A stretch of DNA of 37,841 nucleotides from a virus (IMGVR_UViG_2850808358_000012:1-37841); one strand, 5' to 3'. Positions 10,716 through 37,841 are shown, counted from the first letter of the stretch. Notes: generated by a model not told the origin, from the letters alone. Numbers and translations: made by a program.

Positions 10716-12541
10716 CAGGACGGGGCAAGCTGGAGTGCCCCCATTACCGGGCCACCCAGACGTGACAACGCACGACCGGCACCTTTCCCCATCCAGCCCA
10801 GCGCCCCGGCACCTTTTGTCACAACCCGACCGATCGCACTGCCTGCAAGTTTGTTTCCGATACCGGAAAACCACCCGCCAACAGCACGCCCGGCATCAGC
10901 CAGCTTTCCGACCGTTCCCGTAACCAGTTGCCCGGCAGCACTGCCTGCAAGCCTGCTCAGAAGACCGGATTTACCGGGTAAAGGTAATGGTGCAGGCCGT
11001 GCCGTTACCGGTACGCCGGGTGGGGGTAATGCCAGTACAGGGCGTGGTGCAGGTAATGCCAGCGGCTGTGGCCCGGACAGCAATAACGGCTGGCGGGGTA
11101 ACAGCGGGGCCATTCTTCCGCCGCTCCGTCCGCGACGACCGCCGCCACTCCCGTAGCCACCAAATCCACGGGGCCAGTTGATGACAAACACACGCTGAAT
11201 GCCGGTGCCCTGCAACAGCGTCTCAGACGTCATGGCATCCGGCACCGGCAGACCTGCCCGCCCACGTTTGCGGTTCCGCATCCAGCGCCACATACGACGC
11301 CCGGTTTTAAACGGGTAACTGGCAACCTGCCACGAAGGTTTTGCCACGGCCCAGCCTGCTCTCAGGGCTTTATTGGCAAGCCAGACAGACACCAGAACAG
11401 CAGCCAGTTTTTTCAGGCTGGCAATATTCTGGTCAACCCATGCCAGCGCATCTTTACCCGGTTTCAGCCAGCGCCATAATTCCTGCGCCGCGATTTTTAC
11501 CGTTCTGAACGTGGTCAGAAATTTCTGACCAATGTTTTCTGCCAGTGCGTCAAGTTCCCCGGATTTATCCGCCATGTCGTGCCAGTTAAGTACCCGGCGC
11601 ATCTCGTTCTTGATTTCTTCAAAGGGGCCGCTGTTTGCCACCTTTGTACGAAACTCAAGCAGATTGCCCTCCATCTGGGCCATCATCCCGTCCCAGGAGT
11701 TCATGGCCGCCGCCTGTGCGCCTTTTGACTGTTCCAGTAAGATTCTGAACACCGTCAGGATGGATTTCAGGCCCAGTTTGCCTTTTTCACCCAGCTTACG
11801 GATTTTTTTCTCATCCTCACCCGTTGCATCTGCCAGCACCTTGTAAACGTTGATACCGTAACCGGTCAGCAGGTTGGCATCCGCCGCCGTGATTTGCTGA
11901 CGGGCAAACATCTGTTTGAACTGTAACGAAGCCCCCTGTGCAGTGGGTAAATCCCAGCCATGCATCGCGCCCTGGTTCTGTAGCATGGTGATGAACTGTT
12001 TTACCTGGGCATCAGTCATGCCAAACGCAGTTGATGTGCGGATCTCCTGCAGAACACCACCCAGCCCCCAGGTGGTTTCTTTTGCGTTCTGCTTCGCCCA
12101 CGCCATCATGGCCTGTGCTCTGGCCTTATCGCCGTGATAGAGCGAGTTCATGGCGATAATCTGCTGCTCACGCTGGGCGGCTGCACCAATAAACAGTTTA
12201 TTGGCGGTGTAACCCACGCCAGCGATACCCAGCGCCCCGGCTGACAGCATTCGGAATGTACGGGTTGACAGAGAACCCATTCTGTCAATGGCACCAGAAA
12301 CGCGCACAACCTCCATACGCAGGGCACGCAGGGAACTTTGTCCGCTACGGGACAGGGCGTTTATCTGGTTCGAATACTGGCGGGAACGCCGGGAAAGATT
12401 GCCATTAAGATCAATAATGACAGACGCTTTTAAGCGTTTCCCGGTCACAGAAATCTCCTGATTTAACGGTGATATTGAGAGAGGGTTTTCGCCTGCTGGC
12501 AGTGCCGGAAAAAGCGGGACAGCGGGAGGGACAAGGCCCAT
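10715..12541 (-). CDS. Tail tape measure protein
   Basis: 608 aa, between tail assembly chaperone and N-like gene; Gly- and Pro-rich C-terminal region. Confidence 0.7.
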   Translation of the reverse strand: MGLVPPAVPLFPALPAGENPLSISPLNQEISVTGKRLKASVIIDLNGNLSRRSRQYSNQINALSRSGQSSLRALRMEVVRVSGAIDRMGSLSTRTFRMLSAGALGIAGVGYTANKLFIGAAAQREQQIIAMNSLYHGDKARAQAMMAWAKQNAKETTWGLGGVLQEIRTSTAFGMTDAQVKQFITMLQNQGAMHGWDLPTAQGASLQFKQMFARQQITAADANLLTGYGINVYKVLADATGEDEKKIRKLGEKGKLGLKSILTVFRILLEQSKGAQAAAMNSWDGMMAQMEGNLLEFRTKVANSGPFEEIKNEMRRVLNWHDMADKSGELDALAENIGQKFLTTFRTVKIAAQELWRWLKPGKDALAWVDQNIASLKKLAAVLVSVWLANKALRAGWAVAKPSWQVASYPFKTGRRMWRWMRNRKRGRAGLPVPDAMTSETLLQGTGIQRVFVINWPRGFGGYGSGGGRRGRSGGRMAPLLPRQPLLLSGPQPLALPAPRPVLALPPPGVPVTARPAPLPLPGKSGLLSRLAGSAAGQLVTGTVGKLADAGRAVGGWFSGIGNKLAGSAIGRVVTKGAGALGWMGKGAGRALSRLGGPVMGALQLAPS

Positions 12542-16087: not shown

Positions 16088-16453
16088 TTACCGGTTCCCC
16101 AGCGCCGCACTGACGGCTTTCACTTTGGGTTCCCCCCCTGCGGTAAAGTGTTCCGGGTTTGCCTTATCCAGACCGGCAACGGTCGCACGGATACGGGCGT
16201 TCAGATCGCCCACACCCAGACCGTCCAGCCCCCCAGCCTCAGTGAGCGTTTCTGCTGACGATGCAGATACCACAGACAGCACGCTGTCGGCACGAATGAT
16301 CGCCAGTTGTTCTTCGGTGACTTCCACGGTGTTTTCGCCACGTGTAAAGGCGATTCCGGCGCGGCGGTAGACCGGACGAAGGCATTTAATAATCGCCGTG
16401 CAAGTGATGCGAGAAGTGTCCAGCCGTTGTGAATTAAGCGAAGTGCCTGACAT
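16088..16453 (-). CDS. Hypothetical head protein downstream of major capsid gene
   Basis: 121-aa ORF. Confidence 0.45.
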   Translation of the reverse strand: MSGTSLNSQRLDTSRITCTAIIKCLRPVYRRAGIAFTRGENTVEVTEEQLAIIRADSVLSVVSASSAETLTEAGGLDGLGVGDLNARIRATVAGLDKANPEHFTAGGEPKVKAVSAALGNR

Positions 16454-17437: not shown

Positions 17438-18518
17438 TTTTCTTGTTCCTGTTTCATTTTCAGATACTCAGCCTCTGTAATGCCGAGCGCCTTCACTGCT
17501 GCCTGTTCATCAGCAGACAGCACCGCCACCGCCGTTTTTTCCTGCGACGGGATTTTCGCTGTGGTGGTCTGCATGGCAGATAACGCAGCGATGGGCTGTT
17601 TTTTCTCAAGCTGTGCCGACAGTGCCGCCACGCCAATCTGACCGCCAAGCTGTTCCAGGTAAGAGCGTTCGCTTTTGAAAATGCGGCCTTCCTGTTCCGC
17701 CTTGTCCAGAGCGGCGCTCAGGCTGGCTGTGGCGCTTTGTGCAGTCGCCTGTGCCAGTTCATCACGCAGGGCGTTGTAGCTTTCCACCGGGACGTATTTC
17801 GTCAGGTCAACGGCGGCTTTCTGTGCCTTTTCCAGTTCGGCAGACAACGCCGCCACTTTTCCGGCATCTGTTTCGAGCGCATCAAGCGCACTCAGGGCCG
17901 CGATGGCCTGTTCATCGGTGATGTCTGCATTTTCGGGGACCGTCACCCCAAGACGCGCAAGCAGCTTGCGCAGCGTTTCATTCATGGGTTTGTTCTCCTG
18001 TTGAAGGATGTCGGGAAGGTCTGCCGCCAGTGCGGTCAGCTTTTTCATGCCGGTGGCACCGGGGTCATTGGTCAGCGCAGCAAGGCGGATTTGCAGCACC
18101 GCACCGGTGGCGGTGTCATACGGAAAAACCGCAGAGAGATAACCAAATTCGCCGTCATCGATGCGCTGCTGGGCCGCCGCCGTCCAGCGTGGGTGGATAA
18201 ATAACCCTTCACCTTCACGCCACTGCATTTCATCGGCGTTAAACCAGCCAGCCGCGACGAGTTGTTCCGGGGCAATCCTTTGTCCTTACGTAGCTGGTTA
18301 TGCTCGTAATCAATCAGCACGTCCTGGTTGAGCGCGCGAACGCCTTCAACCAGACGCCCGGCAATCTCACCGTCGATGAACCACCCCTGACCGCCTGTCA
18401 CATCAAACGGACGACCATCACGGGCACTGAAATGACCGGCAGGCAATAGCTGGCACCAGCCGTCAGCGTCAATGGACAGCGCACTCAGTGCGGCAATGCC
18501 AATCGCGTGTTTTTTCAT
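17434..18518 (-). CDS. I: Head protease/scaffold protein (Mu I-like), frameshifted as sequenced
   Basis: Two overlapping ORFs (18072..18518 and 17434..18228). The protein-like reading switches frame between 18265 and 18285; one extra base in the G4 run 18269-18272 or the T3 run 18279-18281 restores a single ~361-aa ORF. Confidence 0.65.
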
Positions 18519-19874: not shown

Positions 19875-20536
19875 GAATGACGCACCATAACTGACCTGTA
19901 GCCCAGTTCTTTCATGCGGGCCGCAGACACCGCCCGGACGCGACAGCGGCAGTTCCAGCCATTGGGCGGGTAATGCGTCTGCCAGAAAATGTCGTCATAC
20001 CTGAAAACCATATTGTGCAGCCGCGCATGTTCCGGGCGTGTTCTGCCATCCATAACGGCAACATACTGCCAGTACGGGTACAAATCTGCGGTATTCATCA
20101 TCTGCGCATAACGTCCTGCCCCATACGCCGTACGGGTATTGACGTTATAAATGGTTGCCAGACGACGCGGACTGCCCAGCTCGATTACCTTTGCGTTTCC
20201 CTCTGCATCCACGATGATTTGTTTTCCCCACCATCCGAGTTTTTGCAACCGGGGGGCCAGTGTGCGGGTAAATTCCTCACGGGTGATGCCTTCACTGACA
20301 GCCCGCTCCACTTCCTCACGGATTGTGGTCAGGACATCCATCCGGGTGGCTTTGGCAACGGTAAAGGCGCGGGCGTGCGCGTCTGCCAGTTGTTCGTACC
20401 AGTTCCAGGTGATGTTGTAGCCTTTGGCGCGGAAATACGCGACAGCCTCCTTTGGCGGGAGGCGTGCGGCATACGCCAGATCAATGGTCTGCTGCGGCAT
20501 CCAGACGCCCCCATATATCGGCAACAAAAATGGCAC
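19871..20536 (-). CDS. F: Head morphogenesis protein with Mu F-like domain (first part)
   Basis: Motif DGRTRPEHARLHN...PPNGWNCRC typical of the Mu F / SPP1 gp7 family; start codon uncertain (M1 at 20536 or M13 at 20500). Confidence 0.6.
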   Translation of the reverse strand: MPFLLPIYGGVWMPQQTIDLAYAARLPPKEAVAYFRAKGYNITWNWYEQLADAHARAFTVAKATRMDVLTTIREEVERAVSEGITREEFTRTLAPRLQKLGWWGKQIIVDAEGNAKVIELGSPRRLATIYNVNTRTAYGAGRYAQMMNTADLYPYWQYVAVMDGRTRPEHARLHNMVFRYDDIFWQTHYPPNGWNCRCRVRAVSAARMKELGYRSVMVRHS

Positions 20537-22019
20537 GGGTCAGCATGTCGATAAGTTCTGCATCATCCATCTGCGGATATAATGAAGCGGCTTTGTTCAT
20601 GGCGGCTTCCGGGCCATCTTTCAGCACAGAAAGAATGACGGGTTTCAGCAGGGGATCAACCGAACGCTGCCAGTCTTCCGGTGAAACGCCCATCCGGTCG
20701 ATATCATCCTCCTGCGGGATATCATCAGCGGATAATGCGGCTTCTTTCTGCGGACCGTTATCCATGACGACCGGTTGAGCAGTAAACACGGCTTCATCAC
20801 CGACCGGCTGTGGAATATGGAGTTTTTCCTGTATCCATGAGACCGGAATACGCATTCCCGCCGCCAGTTTCGGAATGGCGTCAGACAGTGCCGTAATATC
20901 ACCCGCTTCACTGGTATCAAATACAATGCCCGGCAGGCGGTTAATATCAATGGTGCTGCCACTGTTCAGTGCCAGCAGGGGATAAATCAGATCACGGTTA
21001 ATACTGCGGGCAAGCTGGCCCACATCCGCGTTACGGATTTCCCGGCGAACCTCATCATGCACTTCACCCAGCGACCGCGCGCCTTTATCGCCAGCCTCTG
21101 TGGTCAGGGTGCCGCCCAGAATAGCTTTTGAAATCGCTTTTTCTGCCCAGCCAATCATCGCCATAAAGGGGTCTGACTGACCATCTGCGGCGCTCTGAAA
21201 ATCCAGCGTCATCCCCATCGGAATAATGCCACCGGCACGTCGCCCGATATCCATCACGGCCTGCATCAGCGTGGCTTTCTCACGGTTCGTGGAGCCGGTC
21301 GGATATTTACCAACGCGCATGGGGAGTCCGTAAATTTCCAGAAACTCTGCAAAATCACGCACGGAATAGTTTTTAAAAATAAAAGGCCAGATAAGCGTGC
21401 GCACAAGGCCATTGGTGCCAACGTACCCGGTGCGGGATTTGGCCCGGTGCATAAACCAGCCGAACGGTTGCAGCTCCAGCCCGTGATAAGACGCATCACG
21501 CAGGCGTAATTCGTTCAGATTGTCTGGGTTCGCGCAGAACAGCGCCGGATCGCGATGATGCAGCGCCACCGGTACGCGCATTTTCCCAAGCCACCCCCAT
21601 TCAATCTCCTGCATGGAATAGCCCTTGAGAATGGCATCACCGGCATCAAACAGGGCATCTTCAAACCACGCCGCATCATGCAGATATTCATTCAGCATGT
21701 CGGCGTCTTTTTTCTCCTGTGCGCTGGCATCACGTGCCGGAGCGATGCGCCATTCCAGCGCCTGAATGGCAAGCCGGCGTTTGCTCAGTTCGGAAAAAAG
21801 GTGGGTGTCCTTTTCTTCCATATCAAAGGCCAGGTCAGCCTGTGCGGTCAGATCACCGCGTTCGGCATCACGCAGCATCTGCGCGGCCCGGTTCGGCGTC
21901 ACACCACTGGAAGGATGCTCCTGCGTACGCTTCATGACCATTGCCAGCTCATCGCTGCGGGTCTGCATTTCATCGTCAAAATCAAACGGCTGCCCGGAAA
22001 TATCCAGAATACGGCCCAT
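20481..22019 (-). CDS. H: Portal protein (Mu H-like)
   Basis: 512 aa, immediately downstream of the terminase large subunit. Confidence 0.75.
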   Translation of the reverse strand: MGRILDISGQPFDFDDEMQTRSDELAMVMKRTQEHPSSGVTPNRAAQMLRDAERGDLTAQADLAFDMEEKDTHLFSELSKRRLAIQALEWRIAPARDASAQEKKDADMLNEYLHDAAWFEDALFDAGDAILKGYSMQEIEWGWLGKMRVPVALHHRDPALFCANPDNLNELRLRDASYHGLELQPFGWFMHRAKSRTGYVGTNGLVRTLIWPFIFKNYSVRDFAEFLEIYGLPMRVGKYPTGSTNREKATLMQAVMDIGRRAGGIIPMGMTLDFQSAADGQSDPFMAMIGWAEKAISKAILGGTLTTEAGDKGARSLGEVHDEVRREIRNADVGQLARSINRDLIYPLLALNSGSTIDINRLPGIVFDTSEAGDITALSDAIPKLAAGMRIPVSWIQEKLHIPQPVGDEAVFTAQPVVMDNGPQKEAALSADDIPQEDDIDRMGVSPEDWQRSVDPLLKPVILSVLKDGPEAAMNKAASLYPQMDDAELIDMLTRAIFVADIWGRLDAAADH

Positions 22020-23673
22020 TACCAGCCCCCTCGTTCAAACTGGTGATAATCATCAAAATCATCGTTATCAACACCATCACCACGGTGGCGTGGTGGCAGC
22101 GCCTGTATGCTGTCCTCGTCGATAACAAAACCATTCATATAAGACGCCCTGACAGCCATACAGAGCGCCACGGCAAAGTCGCCATGTCGTCGGCCTTTAC
22201 CGCCTTCGTCTTTTGTGCGCCCCTTATCAATCTGCGGAATACCTTTGTCCACCTTGATGTGGAGCAGGTCATCAAGTGTGGTCTGGTGCCGGGCAATCGT
22301 GATGTTCTGCGCTTCAAACTCGCCTTTCAGTTTCGGCATCCACTCCTGATACCAGGATGCGGTCAGATTCACACAGTCGATCATCTCCGGGCCATAAATC
22401 AGACGGGCGGCTTCTGCCAGATAACCGCCGTTACCGGTGGCATCAAATGCAGCGCCGGTAAAACGGGGCAAACGGGACAGAATGAATAAAAGGATTTGTC
22501 GCTGCTGGTCATAGGTCACATTACGCAGCTCCACGCGGAAACATTCGCGTTTGCGTAAGTCAGGCGTGATGGCAAGCGGCACAAACACCGTCAGGTCGCC
22601 ACGGCGTGCAAAGTCTTCGCCCAGTACGTGTTTATTGAGCGGCGACAGCGCATCGAGCAACGGGAGCAGCTCCTGTTCACACCAGTCCTGAACGATGCCG
22701 TGGCGCATTTGTGGTGTCAGCGATTCAAAATCGTCCGGGGCTTCAAAACGCAGAACCGGGATATCCCGCGCGGGTGTCATGGCAGCTTCAATCAGCACGC
22801 GTGACAGATAAGCGCCCCGGATTTTTTAGGAATGCAGCCGTATTCCTCGTCGGCGCTCTCTTTATTCGGCGCATTCCGGTACAGGCCATCACGCCAGGCT
22901 TTTTCCGCTTCCGGCGACCACGGCTGATTCGTGACGTAACAGATACGCCGGTACAACCCGTCAGCGATGGCATCATCCAGTGTGATGCGGTGAACGCTGT
23001 AATCCTTGCGCCCCTCGCGCGCATCCTGAATGTACTGGTTAAACAGGTTATCGACGCCGTTATGTGTCGATATGATGCGCACGCTGGCACCCCACATGTT
23101 TAGTGCAAAGGCCGCTTTCAGCAGTTCGTCCAGGGCTTCATGGAATGCCGCTTCATCAATCACCACGTCCCCCTGCAAACCACGCAGGTTAGACGGGCGG
23201 CTTGACAGCGCCTGTATCTTAAATCCGCTGTTCGGAAAGCGGATCATGTAGGTGAGGATTTCTTCTTTTTTGTCGCTGTCCCAGAAGGTCTGCTCCCAGA
23301 CGTCAGCCTTTGCCAGCTGGTTAAAGGCGCGGGCAAACAGGGCACAGGCGGCGATGTATTCCAGCGCCATTTCCTGACGGGAACCCACATAAAAGACGTT
23401 GCGACCACCGCGACGCTTCGGCTTTGCTGCCGTCATGACATTGCGGCCCGCTTCAGCCCATGTCAGACCGGTACGACGGGATTTTTCAGCGATGCAAATC
23501 TGGCTTTCATCCTCAAACCAGCGGCGCTGATAGCCCAGAAAAACCGGTTCATTGCGGGGCTGTGCTTCCCCGATATCGGTCACGATATTCACGCCGAGCA
23601 GTTCGGCTTCCTTACGCAGGTTGATTTTGCGGGGCGCATGAAGGGCTTTAAGTTTGCTTTCTCTGGTGCTCAC
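22019..23673 (-). CDS. Terminase large subunit, frameshifted as sequenced
   Basis: Two ORFs (22792..23673 and 22019..22798) in frames differing by 1 nt. The downstream frame is open from 22825; one extra A in the A6 run (plus-strand T6 at 22822-22827) restores a ~552-aa ORF. Confidence 0.7.
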
Positions 23674-23728
23674 GGGTGAAAAATCCGGTATAAATTTTCA
23701 GGCATTAATCAGTAAAAAAGAGGTTTTT

Positions 23729-23923
23729 ATGAAAGAGAAACTGACCATTGATCAAAAAATCGAAATTGCCCGGATAGCCGTGCAAATGTTTGAATCCACC
23801 CGGGCAAAAGGCGTTTCACTTGAGATCTCCTGTTCAGGAAAAGCATCAGTGGAAGAAAACACATTTAATGCTTTCTACAAAATTGTTGAAAAAACCGTTA
23901 TCGGTGAACCTGAGAATAACTGA
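23729..23923 (+). CDS. Small hypothetical protein (64 aa) on the opposite strand
   Basis: Strong SD (AAGAGG 5 nt upstream of ATG); AT-rich; converges on and overlaps the 3' end of the 23898..24095 ORF. Confidence 0.5.
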   Translation: MKEKLTIDQKIEIARIAVQMFESTRAKGVSLEISCSGKASVEENTFNAFYKIVEKTVIGEPENN

Positions 23924-24095
23924 TCACCTGGCCCGCTGTAGCCGGGCCATCCACCAGTTGCATAACCAGATACAGGGCCTCGGCCATAATTCGTGGATGG
24001 ACTTCCGGATCCTCATCAATCTGTTTTTTCACAACGGGCCACAGTGCCATTGCCAGTTCTGTTGAGGTTTTGTATTTAGTTTTTTCATCCGCCAT
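23898..24095 (-). CDS. Small hypothetical protein (65 aa)
   Basis: GAGGAG 6 nt upstream of the second ATG (MADEKTKYK...); AT-rich segment between gp27-like gene and terminase. Confidence 0.45.
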   Translation of the reverse strand: MADEKTKYKTSTELAMALWPVVKKQIDEDPEVHPRIMAEALYLVMQLVDGPATAGQVISYSQVHR

Positions 24096-24105
24096 TTTCA
24101 TCTCC

Positions 24106-24276
24106 TCAGGACAAAGTCCTTAGTTGTTTTATGGTCGTATGCCATGAATTGCCTGAAGCCATAGCCTGAACAAGCACATCCCGAATCTGGTGTATCAACC
24201 GGACATCAGACAATGTTGCAATCCTGAAGGCTTTTTTATGGGCACTGATTAGCTGTGCTTTGTAATTATTTTTCAT
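24106..24276 (-). CDS. Small hypothetical protein (56 aa)
   Basis: Distal part of six-frame ORF 24106..24471; starts 10 nt after the stop of the 24287..24877 gene. Confidence 0.35.
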   Translation of the reverse strand: MKNNYKAQLISAHKKAFRIATLSDVRLIHQIRDVLVQAMASGNSWHTTIKQLRTLS

Positions 24277-24286
24277 AACGTAACGC

Positions 24287-24877
24287 CTACGCTTTCCCCA
24301 GCAGTACATCACGGATGCGCTGCTCCAGTTCTTCGCTGATGCCATCCTGCCCGCGCAGTTCTTCACTGACGGCGTTTGCCGCTTCTTCTGCGAACGCCTG
24401 GCGGATTTCTTTCTCGCGCCGGTGGCTGGACATTGCTGTGGATTCCAGACGCTGTGCCGCCAGCATGGCATTTTTCAGCAGGTCAATATCCACGTCAGAT
24501 TCCGGGTTTTCGATTTGCCGCATCATGGCCTTAAAAAGCTGGCTGCGGGCCATTTCCAGAATCAGCTTTGTGGTTTCGCCCATTGGCTTGTCGCCAAGCT
24601 CTGCGGTCAGTGCTGACGTCATTTCACGCATCTGTCGCAGGTTATGGCCTACCTGCTCGACGTTCGTCGCGTAACGGTTCAGACCGGAACGGGAGAGTTT
24701 CATCTCATCCGGCAGGCCAGCGTCTTCAATCAGTGCGTTAATTTCTTCAAGAATACGGGCCTGTGGGATCGCCTTATCACGCAGCATTTCATGCAGCGTT
24801 TTACGTACGTTTTCCGGCAGTAAATCCACTTTTGAAGCCCGTCCCCGTGTTTTCCTGTCCATCACGCCTCCTGTCAT
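24287..24877 (-). CDS. Mu gp27-like protein, possible terminase small subunit
   Basis: 196 aa, position upstream of terminase large subunit. Confidence 0.5.
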   Translation of the reverse strand: MTGGVMDRKTRGRASKVDLLPENVRKTLHEMLRDKAIPQARILEEINALIEDAGLPDEMKLSRSGLNRYATNVEQVGHNLRQMREMTSALTAELGDKPMGETTKLILEMARSQLFKAMMRQIENPESDVDIDLLKNAMLAAQRLESTAMSSHRREKEIRQAFAEEAANAVSEELRGQDGISEELEQRIRDVLLGKA

Positions 24878-27349: not shown

Positions 27350-27605
27350 AATATTTTTCCTTATAACGTTGACAGTGGTGAAGAATTTCCGGCATATCAA
27401 CTGACTGCCAGCCTTTCATGTAATAACTGCCGTGGGTGCCATCATGACCGGTATAGTCGCGGGGCGCAGGCCGTGGCCCACCGGCGACACGGTGCAAAAC
27501 CTCCTGACGCAGCCGCTCACGTCTGCCAAGATGAAAGGATGCATTCCAGCCTTTACCCATGATGATTTCCCCCGGTACGGTTATTCATCACAGGATATTG
27601 AGGAC

Positions 27606-28593: not shown

Positions 28594-28615
28594 AGGCGGT
28601 GCTGCAACACCGCCT
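28594..28615. promoter_or_regulatory. Perfect 8-bp inverted repeat with 6-bp spacer upstream of the gemA RBS
   Basis: AGGCGGTG-ctgcaa-CACCGCCT. Confidence 0.35.
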
Positions 28616-30386: not shown

Positions 30387-30992
30387 TTATTCCTCCGTCA
30401 GTGCCACAAATTCAGAATGTTTAATGCGCTGGCATTCGGCGGGAACCGGTCCCTTCACTTCGCCAGCCAGAAGGTACACCGCAAACAAAATGCCGAATCC
30501 GTCACGGCCGTGGTGCATTTCCCACACTGATTTGATGTCAAACAGGTCAACGTCGGTAGCCACGTTAAGTTCATTGCACAGCCAGACCGGAAAATCCGGG
30601 TATTTTTCGAGCTGATTTTCACAGTCCCGGATGCGCTTCCCGTATTCACGGCCTGCCGGTATTGTCATATCCGGCATTGCCGCCCATAACTGAATATCGC
30701 CAATGAAAAGTGTTTTTGATTCAGTTACCCATCCTTCCGGTGGTAAACGGTTAAACCAGACACGCGTAACCCTCTCAGGCCCTTTGTCACCAGACAAAGA
30801 CACACCGGTTGCATTCACTGATTGCTGTAATAACGAAATAATCTCACCACGCTTAACATAAACGTCTTTCAGCCAGCGAATCGTATAAGCGTTAGCGGCT
30901 GTGTCACTCAGTTTAAAATAAGCACATGCTGTCATTTTCATTCTCTCCGGTTCTGATTCAGGCGCGAGTAGTCCCCTGACGCATCGCGCCAA
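30387..30992 (-). CDS. Hypothetical early protein downstream of gam
   Basis: 201-aa ORF; real start possibly at internal MKMTACAYF.... Confidence 0.5.
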   Translation of the reverse strand: MARCVRGLLAPESEPERMKMTACAYFKLSDTAANAYTIRWLKDVYVKRGEIISLLQQSVNATGVSLSGDKGPERVTRVWFNRLPPEGWVTESKTLFIGDIQLWAAMPDMTIPAGREYGKRIRDCENQLEKYPDFPVWLCNELNVATDVDLFDIKSVWEMHHGRDGFGILFAVYLLAGEVKGPVPAECQRIKHSEFVALTEE

Positions 30993-34031: not shown

Positions 34032-36137
34032 TTAATTAAACAGCTTTTTACGTCTTTTCTGTTCCAGAATATCCAGTGAATGATTCAGATATTCATCACG
34101 CTCAGCGTTGTATGCATTATCAAGCGTCTCCTCAGGAGCCTGAGGCTGAACTGTCACCACATTACCCACAGGGCGATAAACATTCCCCAGCCAGGGTTCT
34201 GTCGTTTTTTGTTCAATAACCTGAATACCTTCATCTTCAGCATCACGAATTTTTCCCTCAGCGCGTTTGCGCATTCCTTTAATACGCTGCTGCTGTTTGT
34301 GATATTCCGCACTGACAGGAAAGGCTGCGCGTTTATTGCCGTTCCATATCGCCTCACAAATAAAACTGCCATCCTTACGGCGCACTGTAATTCGCTCTGC
34401 ATCATGAATGTCATAGCTGATAAGCACTTTGCGACCATGTTCATCACGCAGCTCCGGCGCGTAATAAATATTCCCAAGCCATTTGATTTCGCAGCGTCTT
34501 ACCGGTCGTTCCACCATTGGGCGGAACATGTCGCGCAGCTCAAGATCACTCAGCCACTCAATTTCGGTGTCTTCTTCTGCCAGGCGTTTTTTTCTGAACT
34601 CTGTCGGGCTGTAATGCCGTCCGTTCGGTTTCATCGGCAGCTCAGAATGCGGGCGGTTGTTGTACCATTCCACGCCTTCACGAATAGCCTCAATAAGCTC
34701 CGCCCACGATGGCAGCTCGCGCATTGCCGCTTTCTGGCGGTCGTTCAGAGGCTTGTCCTGTTGCAGGGCGTTAAACGCTGAACGCAGATCACGGTTAAGT
34801 ACACGCAACGATTCCCGGTCAGCACCCTTGCCAAAATAGGTGCGATACCTCCTGGCTATACGCATCGGCAGTGTCCGGTTCAGGCGTTCAATAATGCCGC
34901 GTCCCTGTGGATTACCGGCAATACCGGTAGGGTGTTTAATCCCCAGGCGTGGCAGAATACCCACGACCTCTTTGTCCAGCATGTCAGCCGTTTCACCGGA
35001 ACCGTTATCCGAGTAATACAGGAACGGTTTTCCGTGGTTGCGAATGCCGTGCTGTATCGCACCGGCAACGGCGAACACGTTTTCGGCAAGGTCAAGACTC
35101 CAGCCAACAACAAACCGTGTTCCACCATCGATCACAAACGTGACTTCCGGTGAGAATGGACGCCCGTGGATCGGATGCGCACATTTCAGCTTCATACCGT
35201 GACCGTCACCAATCCAGACATAATTCACCGGCATAGCTGTCCAGTCGCGGCGGGTGAATCCTTCAAGCTGACGGTATTCACTGCCGGTAACGCGCCCTTT
35301 TTGTCTCACCACTTCCGGCAGTTTTTTCATGGCATACCGGACAACATCATAGGAAGGCATCACCTCCAGCATGTACGGTTCGTCCGCATGGCGACGCTGC
35401 CATTCTGCGACAAAATCCTCGTAGGCTTCTGACATGGGTCTGCCGTTCACCTGCCGATACTGCGCCAGAAATTCAGGCAGCCAGCTGATTTCTTCCGGTT
35501 TTATTTCGTCGCGTTTTCCCGGTGCCAGTAACAGCAGCCGTTCGGCGGCGTTCTGCGACTGGTTGTATTTCAGAACCCACTGGTAAAGTGGATCGCGGCT
35601 GATAGTACGATTAGCGCCACGTTTTGCATTGGCGTTAACTGCGGCCTGTTGCAGGCGCTCCGGCAGCTCACCTTTACGGGCTTTTTCAACAAGAAAGTTA
35701 ATGGCTTTCAGTCGCCCGAGGTTACCGGCGCTTTCCAGCTTCAGCACTTCCACCACCAGCGCAGCTCTTGCTTCAGATACCCGGCGCTGGTTTTCGGTCA
35801 GCGCATTCAGGCGTTCTTCCATCAGTTGTGGAGAACCGCGATATGCTTCGATTGCCTGGACAGCGTCAGGATTGCGTGTTTTTCTGGTAACAGCTTTCAC
35901 TTCAGAAACATTGTTCTCTGTAGCCACCAGCTGTTCCACATAGCGTTCACGCAGTGCCTTTCGTGTTATTTCAGGCAGACAATCAATGTGGTACTCAATG
36001 GCTTTTGTGCCTTCCCGACGGCGACTAACGTCACCAAGATCACGAGAAAAACGCTGTAACGCCTGTCGGATGCCTTTTGTGGTGGCTGGCATTCCTGGTA
36101 CGCCGAGCAGGTCATTTACGGTAACGTACGACTGCAT
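34032..36137 (-). CDS. A: DDE transposase A (Mu A family)
   Basis: C-terminus ...ERDEYLNHSLDILEQKRRKK matches the Mu A C-terminal tail. N-terminal domain aligns with Mu A domain I (GxP...G..KAIEY...LP.E.K) but is divergent. Start set at ATG 36137 (AGGAAGG 8 nt upstream) rather than the six-frame start at 36206. Confidence 0.85.
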   Translation of the reverse strand: MQSYVTVNDLLGVPGMPATTKGIRQALQRFSRDLGDVSRRREGTKAIEYHIDCLPEITRKALRERYVEQLVATENNVSEVKAVTRKTRNPDAVQAIEAYRGSPQLMEERLNALTENQRRVSEARAALVVEVLKLESAGNLGRLKAINFLVEKARKGELPERLQQAAVNANAKRGANRTISRDPLYQWVLKYNQSQNAAERLLLLAPGKRDEIKPEEISWLPEFLAQYRQVNGRPMSEAYEDFVAEWQRRHADEPYMLEVMPSYDVVRYAMKKLPEVVRQKGRVTGSEYRQLEGFTRRDWTAMPVNYVWIGDGHGMKLKCAHPIHGRPFSPEVTFVIDGGTRFVVGWSLDLAENVFAVAGAIQHGIRNHGKPFLYYSDNGSGETADMLDKEVVGILPRLGIKHPTGIAGNPQGRGIIERLNRTLPMRIARRYRTYFGKGADRESLRVLNRDLRSAFNALQQDKPLNDRQKAAMRELPSWAELIEAIREGVEWYNNRPHSELPMKPNGRHYSPTEFRKKRLAEEDTEIEWLSDLELRDMFRPMVERPVRRCEIKWLGNIYYAPELRDEHGRKVLISYDIHDAERITVRRKDGSFICEAIWNGNKRAAFPVSAEYHKQQQRIKGMRKRAEGKIRDAEDEGIQVIEQKTTEPWLGNVYRPVGNVVTVQPQAPEETLDNAYNAERDEYLNHSLDILEQKRRKKLFN

Positions 36138-36138
36138 A

Positions 36139-36390
36139 TCACGACACCTTCCTGATAAATCCATCGTTACGATACCGGCTGGGCCAGATGATTTCTGGCG
36201 GTACACCTATAGCGTCAGAAATTACGCGTTCGTATTTTTTGTTTGGTGTGCGAACTACCGCTTTCAGTGAATCCTGAGCATAACCAGCATGGAGTGAAAG
36301 CTCCCGGAAGGAAGACCACCCGTTATCTTTGAGCGCCAGCTGAATCTTCAGCGAAGGCCAATCGCGGTCACTATCTTCTCTTTGTCTCAT
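36139..36390 (-). CDS. ner: Ner-like DNA-binding regulator
   Basis: 83 aa; ...DAIGVPPEIIWPSRY motif typical of the Ner/Nlp family; first gene of the early operon. Confidence 0.8.
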   Translation of the reverse strand: MRQREDSDRDWPSLKIQLALKDNGWSSFRELSLHAGYAQDSLKAVVRTPNKKYERVISDAIGVPPEIIWPSRYRNDGFIRKVS

Positions 36391-36554
36391 CTTTCCTTTA
36401 ACCTACAAAATTACCCGCGCGGATATCCGGTCGGATATCCGTATGGATAAAGATTAAGATGCCAAAGATTCCTTGTAAAGGCTTCTTTGGTGTTTTTGTG
36501 GTTTATTTTTTAATTTCATTATTTATCAATGAATTAGATAGAAAGGAACCAAGA
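36391..36554. promoter_or_regulatory. Divergent early-promoter/operator region between ner and repressor
   Basis: Two palindromic GGATATCCG copies (36421-36429 and 36433-36441), 12 bp apart, plus a GGATA half-site. Confidence 0.5.
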
Positions 36555-37118
36555 ATGAGAAAAGCACCCCAAGGTTCTTTTCCTGCCGATGGAAAAGAAC
36601 CGATTATCGAAAGAATCTTTAGGTTAGTAGAACGATACCCTTCAAGAAATGCGGCTGCTCGGGCATGGGGGATCAATGAAGGCACTTTAAAAAATTATTA
36701 CAACAGGCGGGATTACGCACCGATACCACGCCCGCATCAGTTAAAAAAGATAGCAGAAAGCGAAAATGTTACCTTGGAATGGCTCATGACGGGAGAGGGT
36801 GATGTTGAACTAAAAGATTCCAAAGAACCCAAAAAAGAGAATGCGGATAATGTTGATGCTCAAATTCTAATGTTCTTGTCATTTCTTAAACCACAAGAAA
36901 AACAACAAGTAGCTGATGTTCTTGGGAGAAAAGGAGCGGAGCAATTACTCATTCTTCTGGATGAGCACATCCAAGAGTTGCACGCTCTAGTTGGAGTTCG
37001 TAGAGCCATAGCGTTAAGCCTTGGTAATTTGCCAGACGAAAAGGTTAGAGAGATTTACGCGTTGTCCGAAGCTAAGGGCGATCACTTAAATCTACCTCAG
37101 AAAGCAGCCAGCGCATAA
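36555..37118 (+). CDS. Repressor, CI-type helix-turn-helix (not Mu c-type)
   Basis: Start at the ATG with AAGGAA 6 nt upstream (six-frame ORF begins at 36459). HTH region ...AAARAWGINEGTLKNYYN...TLEWLMTGEG; transcribed divergently from ner toward the phage end. Confidence 0.65.
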   Translation: MRKAPQGSFPADGKEPIIERIFRLVERYPSRNAAARAWGINEGTLKNYYNRRDYAPIPRPHQLKKIAESENVTLEWLMTGEGDVELKDSKEPKKENADNVDAQILMFLSFLKPQEKQQVADVLGRKGAEQLLILLDEHIQELHALVGVRRAIALSLGNLPDEKVREIYALSEAKGDHLNLPQKAASA

Positions 37119-37242
37119 CCCAGTGCAAGTGCCTAGCTGTGCTAAAATTACATTGGTTTTGGCGCTTGCACCCATCAGCGCTATAATAAACACCTGAATC
37201 GTTTTTGAACGGTCTTTAAAGGCTATTGTAAGAACCTGTGAG

Positions 37243-37376
37243 TTATCTTGAATGTTTTATTGATATCGAACCGTTTAACATTTTTGGACTCGCTTTATCT
37301 TGAAAACCTTGAGTTCCTAACTTGTTGATTCCAATCTATTCCCGTCTTTTTTAATCTCTTCCCGGTTATCTTGAAT
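37243..37376. repeat. Three spaced TTATCTTGAA repeats at the repressor end; putative transposase-binding sites (L1-L3-like)
   Basis: Copies at 37243-37252, 37295-37304 and 37366-37375, the last contained in the terminal inverted repeat. Confidence 0.6.
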
Positions 37377-37379
37377 AAA

Positions 37380-37841
37380 TTACCTAGTCATATCCTTTTG
37401 GATGTCATTCTCCGGTGGCAACGGGGTGAAGCTCTTTATCACCTCCAGCAGCATCGTCTTTTGACTGTTCTTCAGGGATAAGGAGGTGCTGAAAGTGAAG
37501 GTCAGCAGCGTATCTCCACGCCGCTGGAATACGGCTATCTGGCTAATCCGCCCCTGATTCCCCTCATCTTCCGGACCGTTCCAGGAATAATCCAGCAGCC
37601 AGGCCGGGGCCTCTGCCAGAGTGATTTCCCGGCAGGCATGTTCGGTGTACCCATCAAGTTTGCCCTGGTACAGCGCCAGCGTTTCCTGGTACAGCTCTGG
37701 TGTCAGGGTTCCCTGTGGAACGGCTTCGCGGGTAATGACCAGGTTGATGCCACTGTTATCTGTGGACACCAGGACCTGCATTGACTGATCCTGCCATTGA
37801 GACGGCAGTTGAATGTGGCCTTCATTAAAAGTGAACTGCAT
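37380..37841 (-). CDS. Host DUF1795/DcrB-family protein, EagR-like T6SS effector chaperone
   Basis: 153 aa; N-terminal pattern F.EG.I.LP..WQDQS...SG.NLVITRE resembles DUF1795 proteins as I recall them; stop codon overlaps the 5-bp target duplication. Confidence 0.5.
   Translation of the reverse strand: MQFTFNEGHIQLPSQWQDQSMQVLVSTDNSGINLVITREAVPQGTLTPELYQETLALYQGKLDGYTEHACREITLAEAPAWLLDYSWNGPEDEGNQGRISQIAVFQRRGDTLLTFTFSTSLSLKNSQKTMLLEVIKSFTPLPPENDIQKDMTR

Follow-up and report, generated by a model that had tools for sequence, protein, structure and literature searches.

The gene for the terminase large subunit (TerL) of a Mu-like prophage was found to be split into two open reading frames, and this split very probably reflects a homopolymer error in the consensus of a long-read assembly that was left unpolished, rather than a frameshift in the organism. 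The gene lies on the minus strand at positions 22019-23673 of the window, the whole stretch of 37,841 nucleotides that we analyzed, which comes from the 5.13 Mb record CP026877.1 (GCA_002950035.1). The dropped base is one of about ten that look identical and occur in this assembly alone, and it is therefore almost certainly a sequencing artefact.

The identity of the gene was established by a tblastn search with Mu gp28/E together with matches to PHROG_2 and to the Pfam family Terminase_6N. The search with Mu gp28 returned two segments, one covering residues 1-287 in frame -3 and the other residues 284-551 in frame -2, both 97% identical. Overall, the protein shares ~97% of its amino acids with Mu gp28 (AAF01106.1, AF083977), which is annotated as terminase large subunit. 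At the nucleotide level, the homologues in Mu, D108, SfMu and the Yersinia phage vB_YpM_Tongde are 96.9-98.7% identical over the whole gene (96.9% for Mu, 98.7% for Tongde) and occupy the same position between gp27 and gp29. The order in the window, with the small terminase gp27 (24290-24862), TerL and an intact portal gp29 (20481-22019) all on the minus strand, is that of Mu. PHROG_2, "terminase large subunit", matched residues 43-540 of either the frame-restored protein or the TerL of a near-identical prophage, L013 (E = 1.8e-46), and it also matched the N-terminal fragment of 293 residues (2.6e-33). Residues 63-232 of this fragment gave a weak match to the P-loop ATPase family Terminase_6N (25.3 bits against a cut-off of 22), while the full-length protein matched nothing in Pfam at E <= 0.01. 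In the C-terminal part, the PHROG_2 alignment reaches residue 540 and phrog_5909, another terminase large subunit family, spans residues 351-510; no Pfam nuclease-domain match was found on TerL for the RNase H-like nuclease expected there. The assignment as terminase large subunit, made before from the sequence alone, is thus well founded.

In Mu, Tongde and E. coli prophages the gene is a single reading frame of 551 residues and measures 1656 nt, one more than the 1655 nt of the window. The N-terminal frame in the window (22792-23673, minus strand, 293 residues) holds the ATPase part and ends with eight out-of-frame codons followed by TGA. The C-terminal frame (22019-22798, minus strand) corresponds to residues ~284-551 of Mu gp28 and extends over 259 residues from an internal GTG. 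The two registers are one base apart, and the single uninterrupted frame of ~551 residues that the window lacks was present in every other record examined. The sequence-only reading had described a one-nucleotide split that a single extra base would repair. Both points hold: one added base gives an uninterrupted frame of 551 residues plus the stop (552 codons).

The position of the lesion is a different matter. Alignment, indel lists and allele tallies placed it at 22815-22818 on the plus strand (~4,742,212-4,742,215 of CP026877.1), where the window has a C4 run and its relatives have C5, corresponding to G4 versus G5 on the coding strand. The coding strand of the relatives reads CCT AAA AAA TCC GGG GGC GCT, while that of the window continues after TCC as GGG GCG. 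The missing G belongs to the G5 run at TerL codons 286-287, and it is this shortage with respect to Mu gp28 that yields two reading frames. The adjoining T6 run (22822-22827, plus strand; A6 on the coding strand), to which the frameshift had previously been attributed, has its wild-type length: A6 is likewise present in every intact gene compared, those of Mu, Tongde and E. coli JCKP02 among them, which excludes the A-run as the lesion. An A7 tract, proposed at the time as the mark of an intact gene, likewise refers to the wrong run, the relatives carrying A6 together with G5. The insertion of one base restores the frame anywhere within 22792-22825, and an A added in the A-run also reopens it, with PKKIRGAY as the product, two residues off the conserved PKKSGGAY. 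A G added in the G-run instead gives 552 of 552 codons identical to the TerL of L013 (SRR6049580), and the TerL restored in this way matches Mu gp28 at 540 of 552 codons.

TerL is not the only gene affected. A tblastn search of all Mu proteins against the window revealed frame breaks in four further late genes, each with halves that are 93-98% identical to Mu. In plus-strand letters, gp30/F (439 residues) is split into 209 and 230 residues by a change from C4 to C3 at 19902-19904, the protease gp32/I (361 residues) is frameshifted by G5 to G4 at 18269-18272, and the C-terminus of gp35 is frameshifted by C5 to C4 at 16097-16100. In the tape-measure gene gp42 (690 residues), G5 is shortened to G4 at 10722-10725 (indel placed at 10726). 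A fifth site is intergenic, just upstream of gene C, where C5 has become C4 (27224-27227, plus strand). The same search found no nonsense codon in any Mu homologue of the prophage. Whereas the one-nucleotide split in TerL had been recognized from the sequence alone, its recurrence in four more genes of the phage and in genes of the host had been missed.

We then compared the window with Mu and Tongde, and with every locus sharing at least 98.5% identity with it, and listed the indels. Every isolated one-nucleotide indel in conserved sequence was a deletion in the window within a G/C run of 4-5; two more sites in the prophage, at 28597 and 1121, give a similar but less clear picture. Within the prophage, 5 of ~35 G/C runs of at least 5 had collapsed, against none of the 132 A/T runs of at least 5 (Fisher p = 3e-4), and the probability of seven randomly placed indels all landing in G/C runs of at least 4 is ~1e-12. 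A total collapse of G/C 5-mers is excluded, as 36 such runs remain in the window. The contexts of the deleted runs have no sequence or methylation motif in common (Dcm CCWGG and Dam GATC were considered, as an ONT-type cause), three of them being CCCCCGG. At a single site the run in the window is the longer one: the intergenic C5 between mor and gene 18 (27569-27573) is C4 in the near-identical prophages L043 and L045.

The prophage extends from 997 to 37392 on the minus strand, inverted relative to the Mu map, and is bounded by a 5-bp target duplication, TCCTT. The insertion lies within the final codons of a DcrB-related gene on an E. coli/Shigella chromosome, with a VgrG gene on one side and an Rhs gene on the other. 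Its composition is mosaic. Identity to Mu is 94-100% in the late and middle genes, while the transposase shares only ~27% identity with MuA and a Ner-like protein ~35%; no match to the Mu repressor was found in the prophage. At the ends (window 997-1090 and 34044-37392), ATTCAAGATA-type repeats replace the terminal transposase-binding sites of Mu, and the target duplication is still 5 bp despite these non-Mu repeats. The counterpart of Mu 34502-35613 is missing at window ~2086-2524, and tblastn gave no match for the G-segment invertase gin. There, only a truncated form of the alternative fibre gene S' remains, with U and U' both kept. With gin absent and S' truncated, tail-fibre switching should be locked. 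The relatives L050 and L051 likewise have only a resolvase fragment, or none.

An extra reading frame of 182 residues, not found in Mu, lies between gam and gp11 (30401-30949, minus strand) and has no precomputed Pfam family on record. Between gp27 and TerL, where Mu has 7 nt, an insert of ~600 nt (23674-24289) carries two small reading frames on opposite strands whose 3' ends overlap. One encodes 65 residues on the minus strand (23898-24095) and belongs to phrog_21398, of unknown function, and the other encodes 64 residues (23729-23923). Neither matched Pfam, and the protein of 65 residues appears in 522 blocks of the assembly collection. The insert is a candidate moron.

The same type of deletion was found in host DNA. 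In the left flank, outside the prophage, the Rhs/PAAR gene carries C4 in place of C5 at 755-758 on the plus strand (indel listed at 754), and this allele had no match among the 2117 E. coli complete genomes carrying that stretch. In 10 kb of host DNA to the right of the window in CP026877.1 (L009), cusA has gone from C4 to C3 and vgrG from C5 to C4, and these are the only two indels relative to an E. coli reference that is 98.5% identical. In total, we counted six to seven prophage sites and three host sites (Rhs, cusA and vgrG) over ~48 kb, giving a density of about one deletion per 4-5 kb in phage and host alike. Extrapolated, this amounts to ~1000 frameshifts per genome, a load that is not biologically credible. 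Four nonsense substitutions relative to the E. coli reference are also present in the host flank (L009, 1-10000), one in cusB, one in cusC and two in vgrG. These stop codons differ in kind from the homopolymer deletions and are consistent with a genuine decay of the Shigella type. In the Rhs/PAAR gene, positions 800-807 form a G8 run, which has the same length in O157 WS4202 but is G7 in E. coli M8; the Rhs gene of both genomes is annotated as frameshifted in RefSeq. Either the tract varies naturally or it poses a recurring difficulty for sequencing.

We next compared the window with independent assemblies. At every site the short allele is private to the CP026877.1 loci, and all other records with matching flanks are one base longer. 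For the TerL run, G5 was found in 26 loci from ~24 independent records and G4 in the CP026877.1 loci alone; in IMG/VR, the G5 allele occurred nine times and the G4 allele not once. The exact truncated product of 293 residues is encoded by one contig in the whole collection, that of CP026877.1. Near-identical prophages were retrieved through the intact portal, the small reading frame beside TerL, the tail tube and GemA, which gave more than 20 other assemblies. In these, TerL has 551 residues (552 in one), F 439, I 360-361 and the tape measure 690. None of the near-identical prophages with an intact TerL is proven to come from the source strain. Over 9.5 kb, one SNP and exactly three of these G/C-run indels separate the L013 prophage from the source. 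The exact junction between the prophage and the DcrB-related gene is also found in GCA_003572525.1 (L010), SRR1811640 and DRR015988, on junction contigs of 2.3-3.5 kb. Over 3516 nt, the draft L010 departs from the source only by C5 in vgrG, where the source has C4, and its identical Mu-host junction indicates the same transposition event as in the source. A scan of the GTDB species representatives found neither G4 nor G5, the E. coli/Shigella representatives there being without this phage.

These results bear on whether the deletion exists in the organism. Slippage during replication of the G5 run could have inactivated the terminase, with similar events in F, I, gp35 and the tape measure, an account that we consider improbable. 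Equally improbable is its corollary, that a Shigella-like host harbors a Mu remnant that is in decay and defective in packaging. The deposited sequence does carry the lesion, homopolymers and in particular G/C runs are natural hotspots of slippage and indels, the prophage has lost gin, and the host flank displays true-looking decay through nonsense substitutions. On the other hand, the prophage contains seven or more lesions of one single type and none of any other type, its A/T runs are untouched, and host genes bear the same lesion at the same density. All the lesions are private to one assembly, and at the one site that L010 shares with the source, in vgrG, this relative with the same junction has the full-length run. 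The indel:SNP ratio of 3:1 relative to L013 is the opposite of what natural and mismatch-repair-deficient mutation spectra display, and the ~1000 implied frameshifts per genome would be incompatible with a viable cell. As for the usual signs of genuine pseudogenes, namely lesions shared with clonal relatives and nonsense codons, no nonsense codon was found in any Mu homologue of the prophage, and the lesions are confined to CP026877.1 among the records with matching flanks. It is more doubtful still that a -1 mutational process specific to G/C homopolymers, or phase-variable slippage, silenced five morphogenesis genes of the prophage and nearby host genes in a Shigella/E. coli lineage; in that case, -1 slippage on the A6 run could perhaps supply residual terminase.

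The split gene might also be read as a functional two-frame TerL, in which -1 ribosomal (or transcriptional) slippage takes place on the A6 run just upstream of the lesion; we regard this as extremely unlikely, and no less so the regulated balance that it would entail between the full-length enzyme and a product with the ATPase alone. An A AAA AAT-like slippery stretch does lie 1-7 nt upstream of the lesion, and a -1 shift there would reach the downstream frame and open the frame of 551 residues. The arrangement resembles the programmed -1 frameshift of tail assembly chaperone genes in its two overlapping frames and in the A-rich slippery stretch near their junction, although the chaperone frameshift of Mu itself (gp41/Mu_56) is annotated as -2. 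Unlike these programmed cases, the TerL layout arises from a private one-nucleotide deletion and is seen in no homologue, all ~24 relative records examined having a single frame with G5. Because of this absence of conservation, a programmed frameshift was set aside. In addition, the stretch in frame 0 (CCT AAA AAA TCC) offers T AAA AAA in place of a canonical X XXY YYZ heptamer, and identical lesions occur where such a context is lacking, in four further genes of the phage and in genes of the host.

A consensus error agrees better with the pattern as a whole. Like unpolished long-read assemblies (PacBio RS II or ONT), the window has scattered one-base deletions in homopolymers of 4-5, in coding and non-coding sequence of both phage and host, which are absent from independent assemblies and create apparent pseudogenes. 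Unlike such assemblies, its deletions are restricted to G/C runs, with none among the 132 A/T runs of at least 5, and the platform to which the comparison refers is itself presumed. The accession next to it, CP026878, is assigned to Shigella dysenteriae 07-3308 from Kim et al. 2018 (a PacBio set), and from the adjacency of the accessions alone we infer that CP026877.1 belongs to a PacBio-only Shigella batch. Among long-read errors, homopolymer indels predominate and fragment genes (PMC12007338).

Under the consensus-error explanation, the assembler would have under-called G5 as G4 (C5 as C4 on the plus strand) at 22815-22818, and the same under-call would have affected about one in seven G/C homopolymers of the region, in phage and host DNA alike. 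The strain's reads would then be expected to show G5 at the TerL run. The real organism most likely encodes an intact Mu-type TerL of 551 residues, with a predicted N-terminal ATPase and C-terminal nuclease, which would act with gp27 and the portal gp29 in headful packaging. The sequence-only reading had left two outcomes side by side, a packaging-defective prophage or a homopolymer error; the private and recurrent deletions in G/C runs favor the error and make the defective prophage unlikely. For CP026877.1, any call of a "pseudogene", a "defective prophage" or a "frameshift" is suspect until the assembly is polished, including those for the five broken Mu morphogenesis genes and for cusA, vgrG and Rhs of the host. 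The apparent biology of the prophage is thereby reversed: as far as the sequence tells, its packaging and head-tail genes are intact, the missing gin being the exception.
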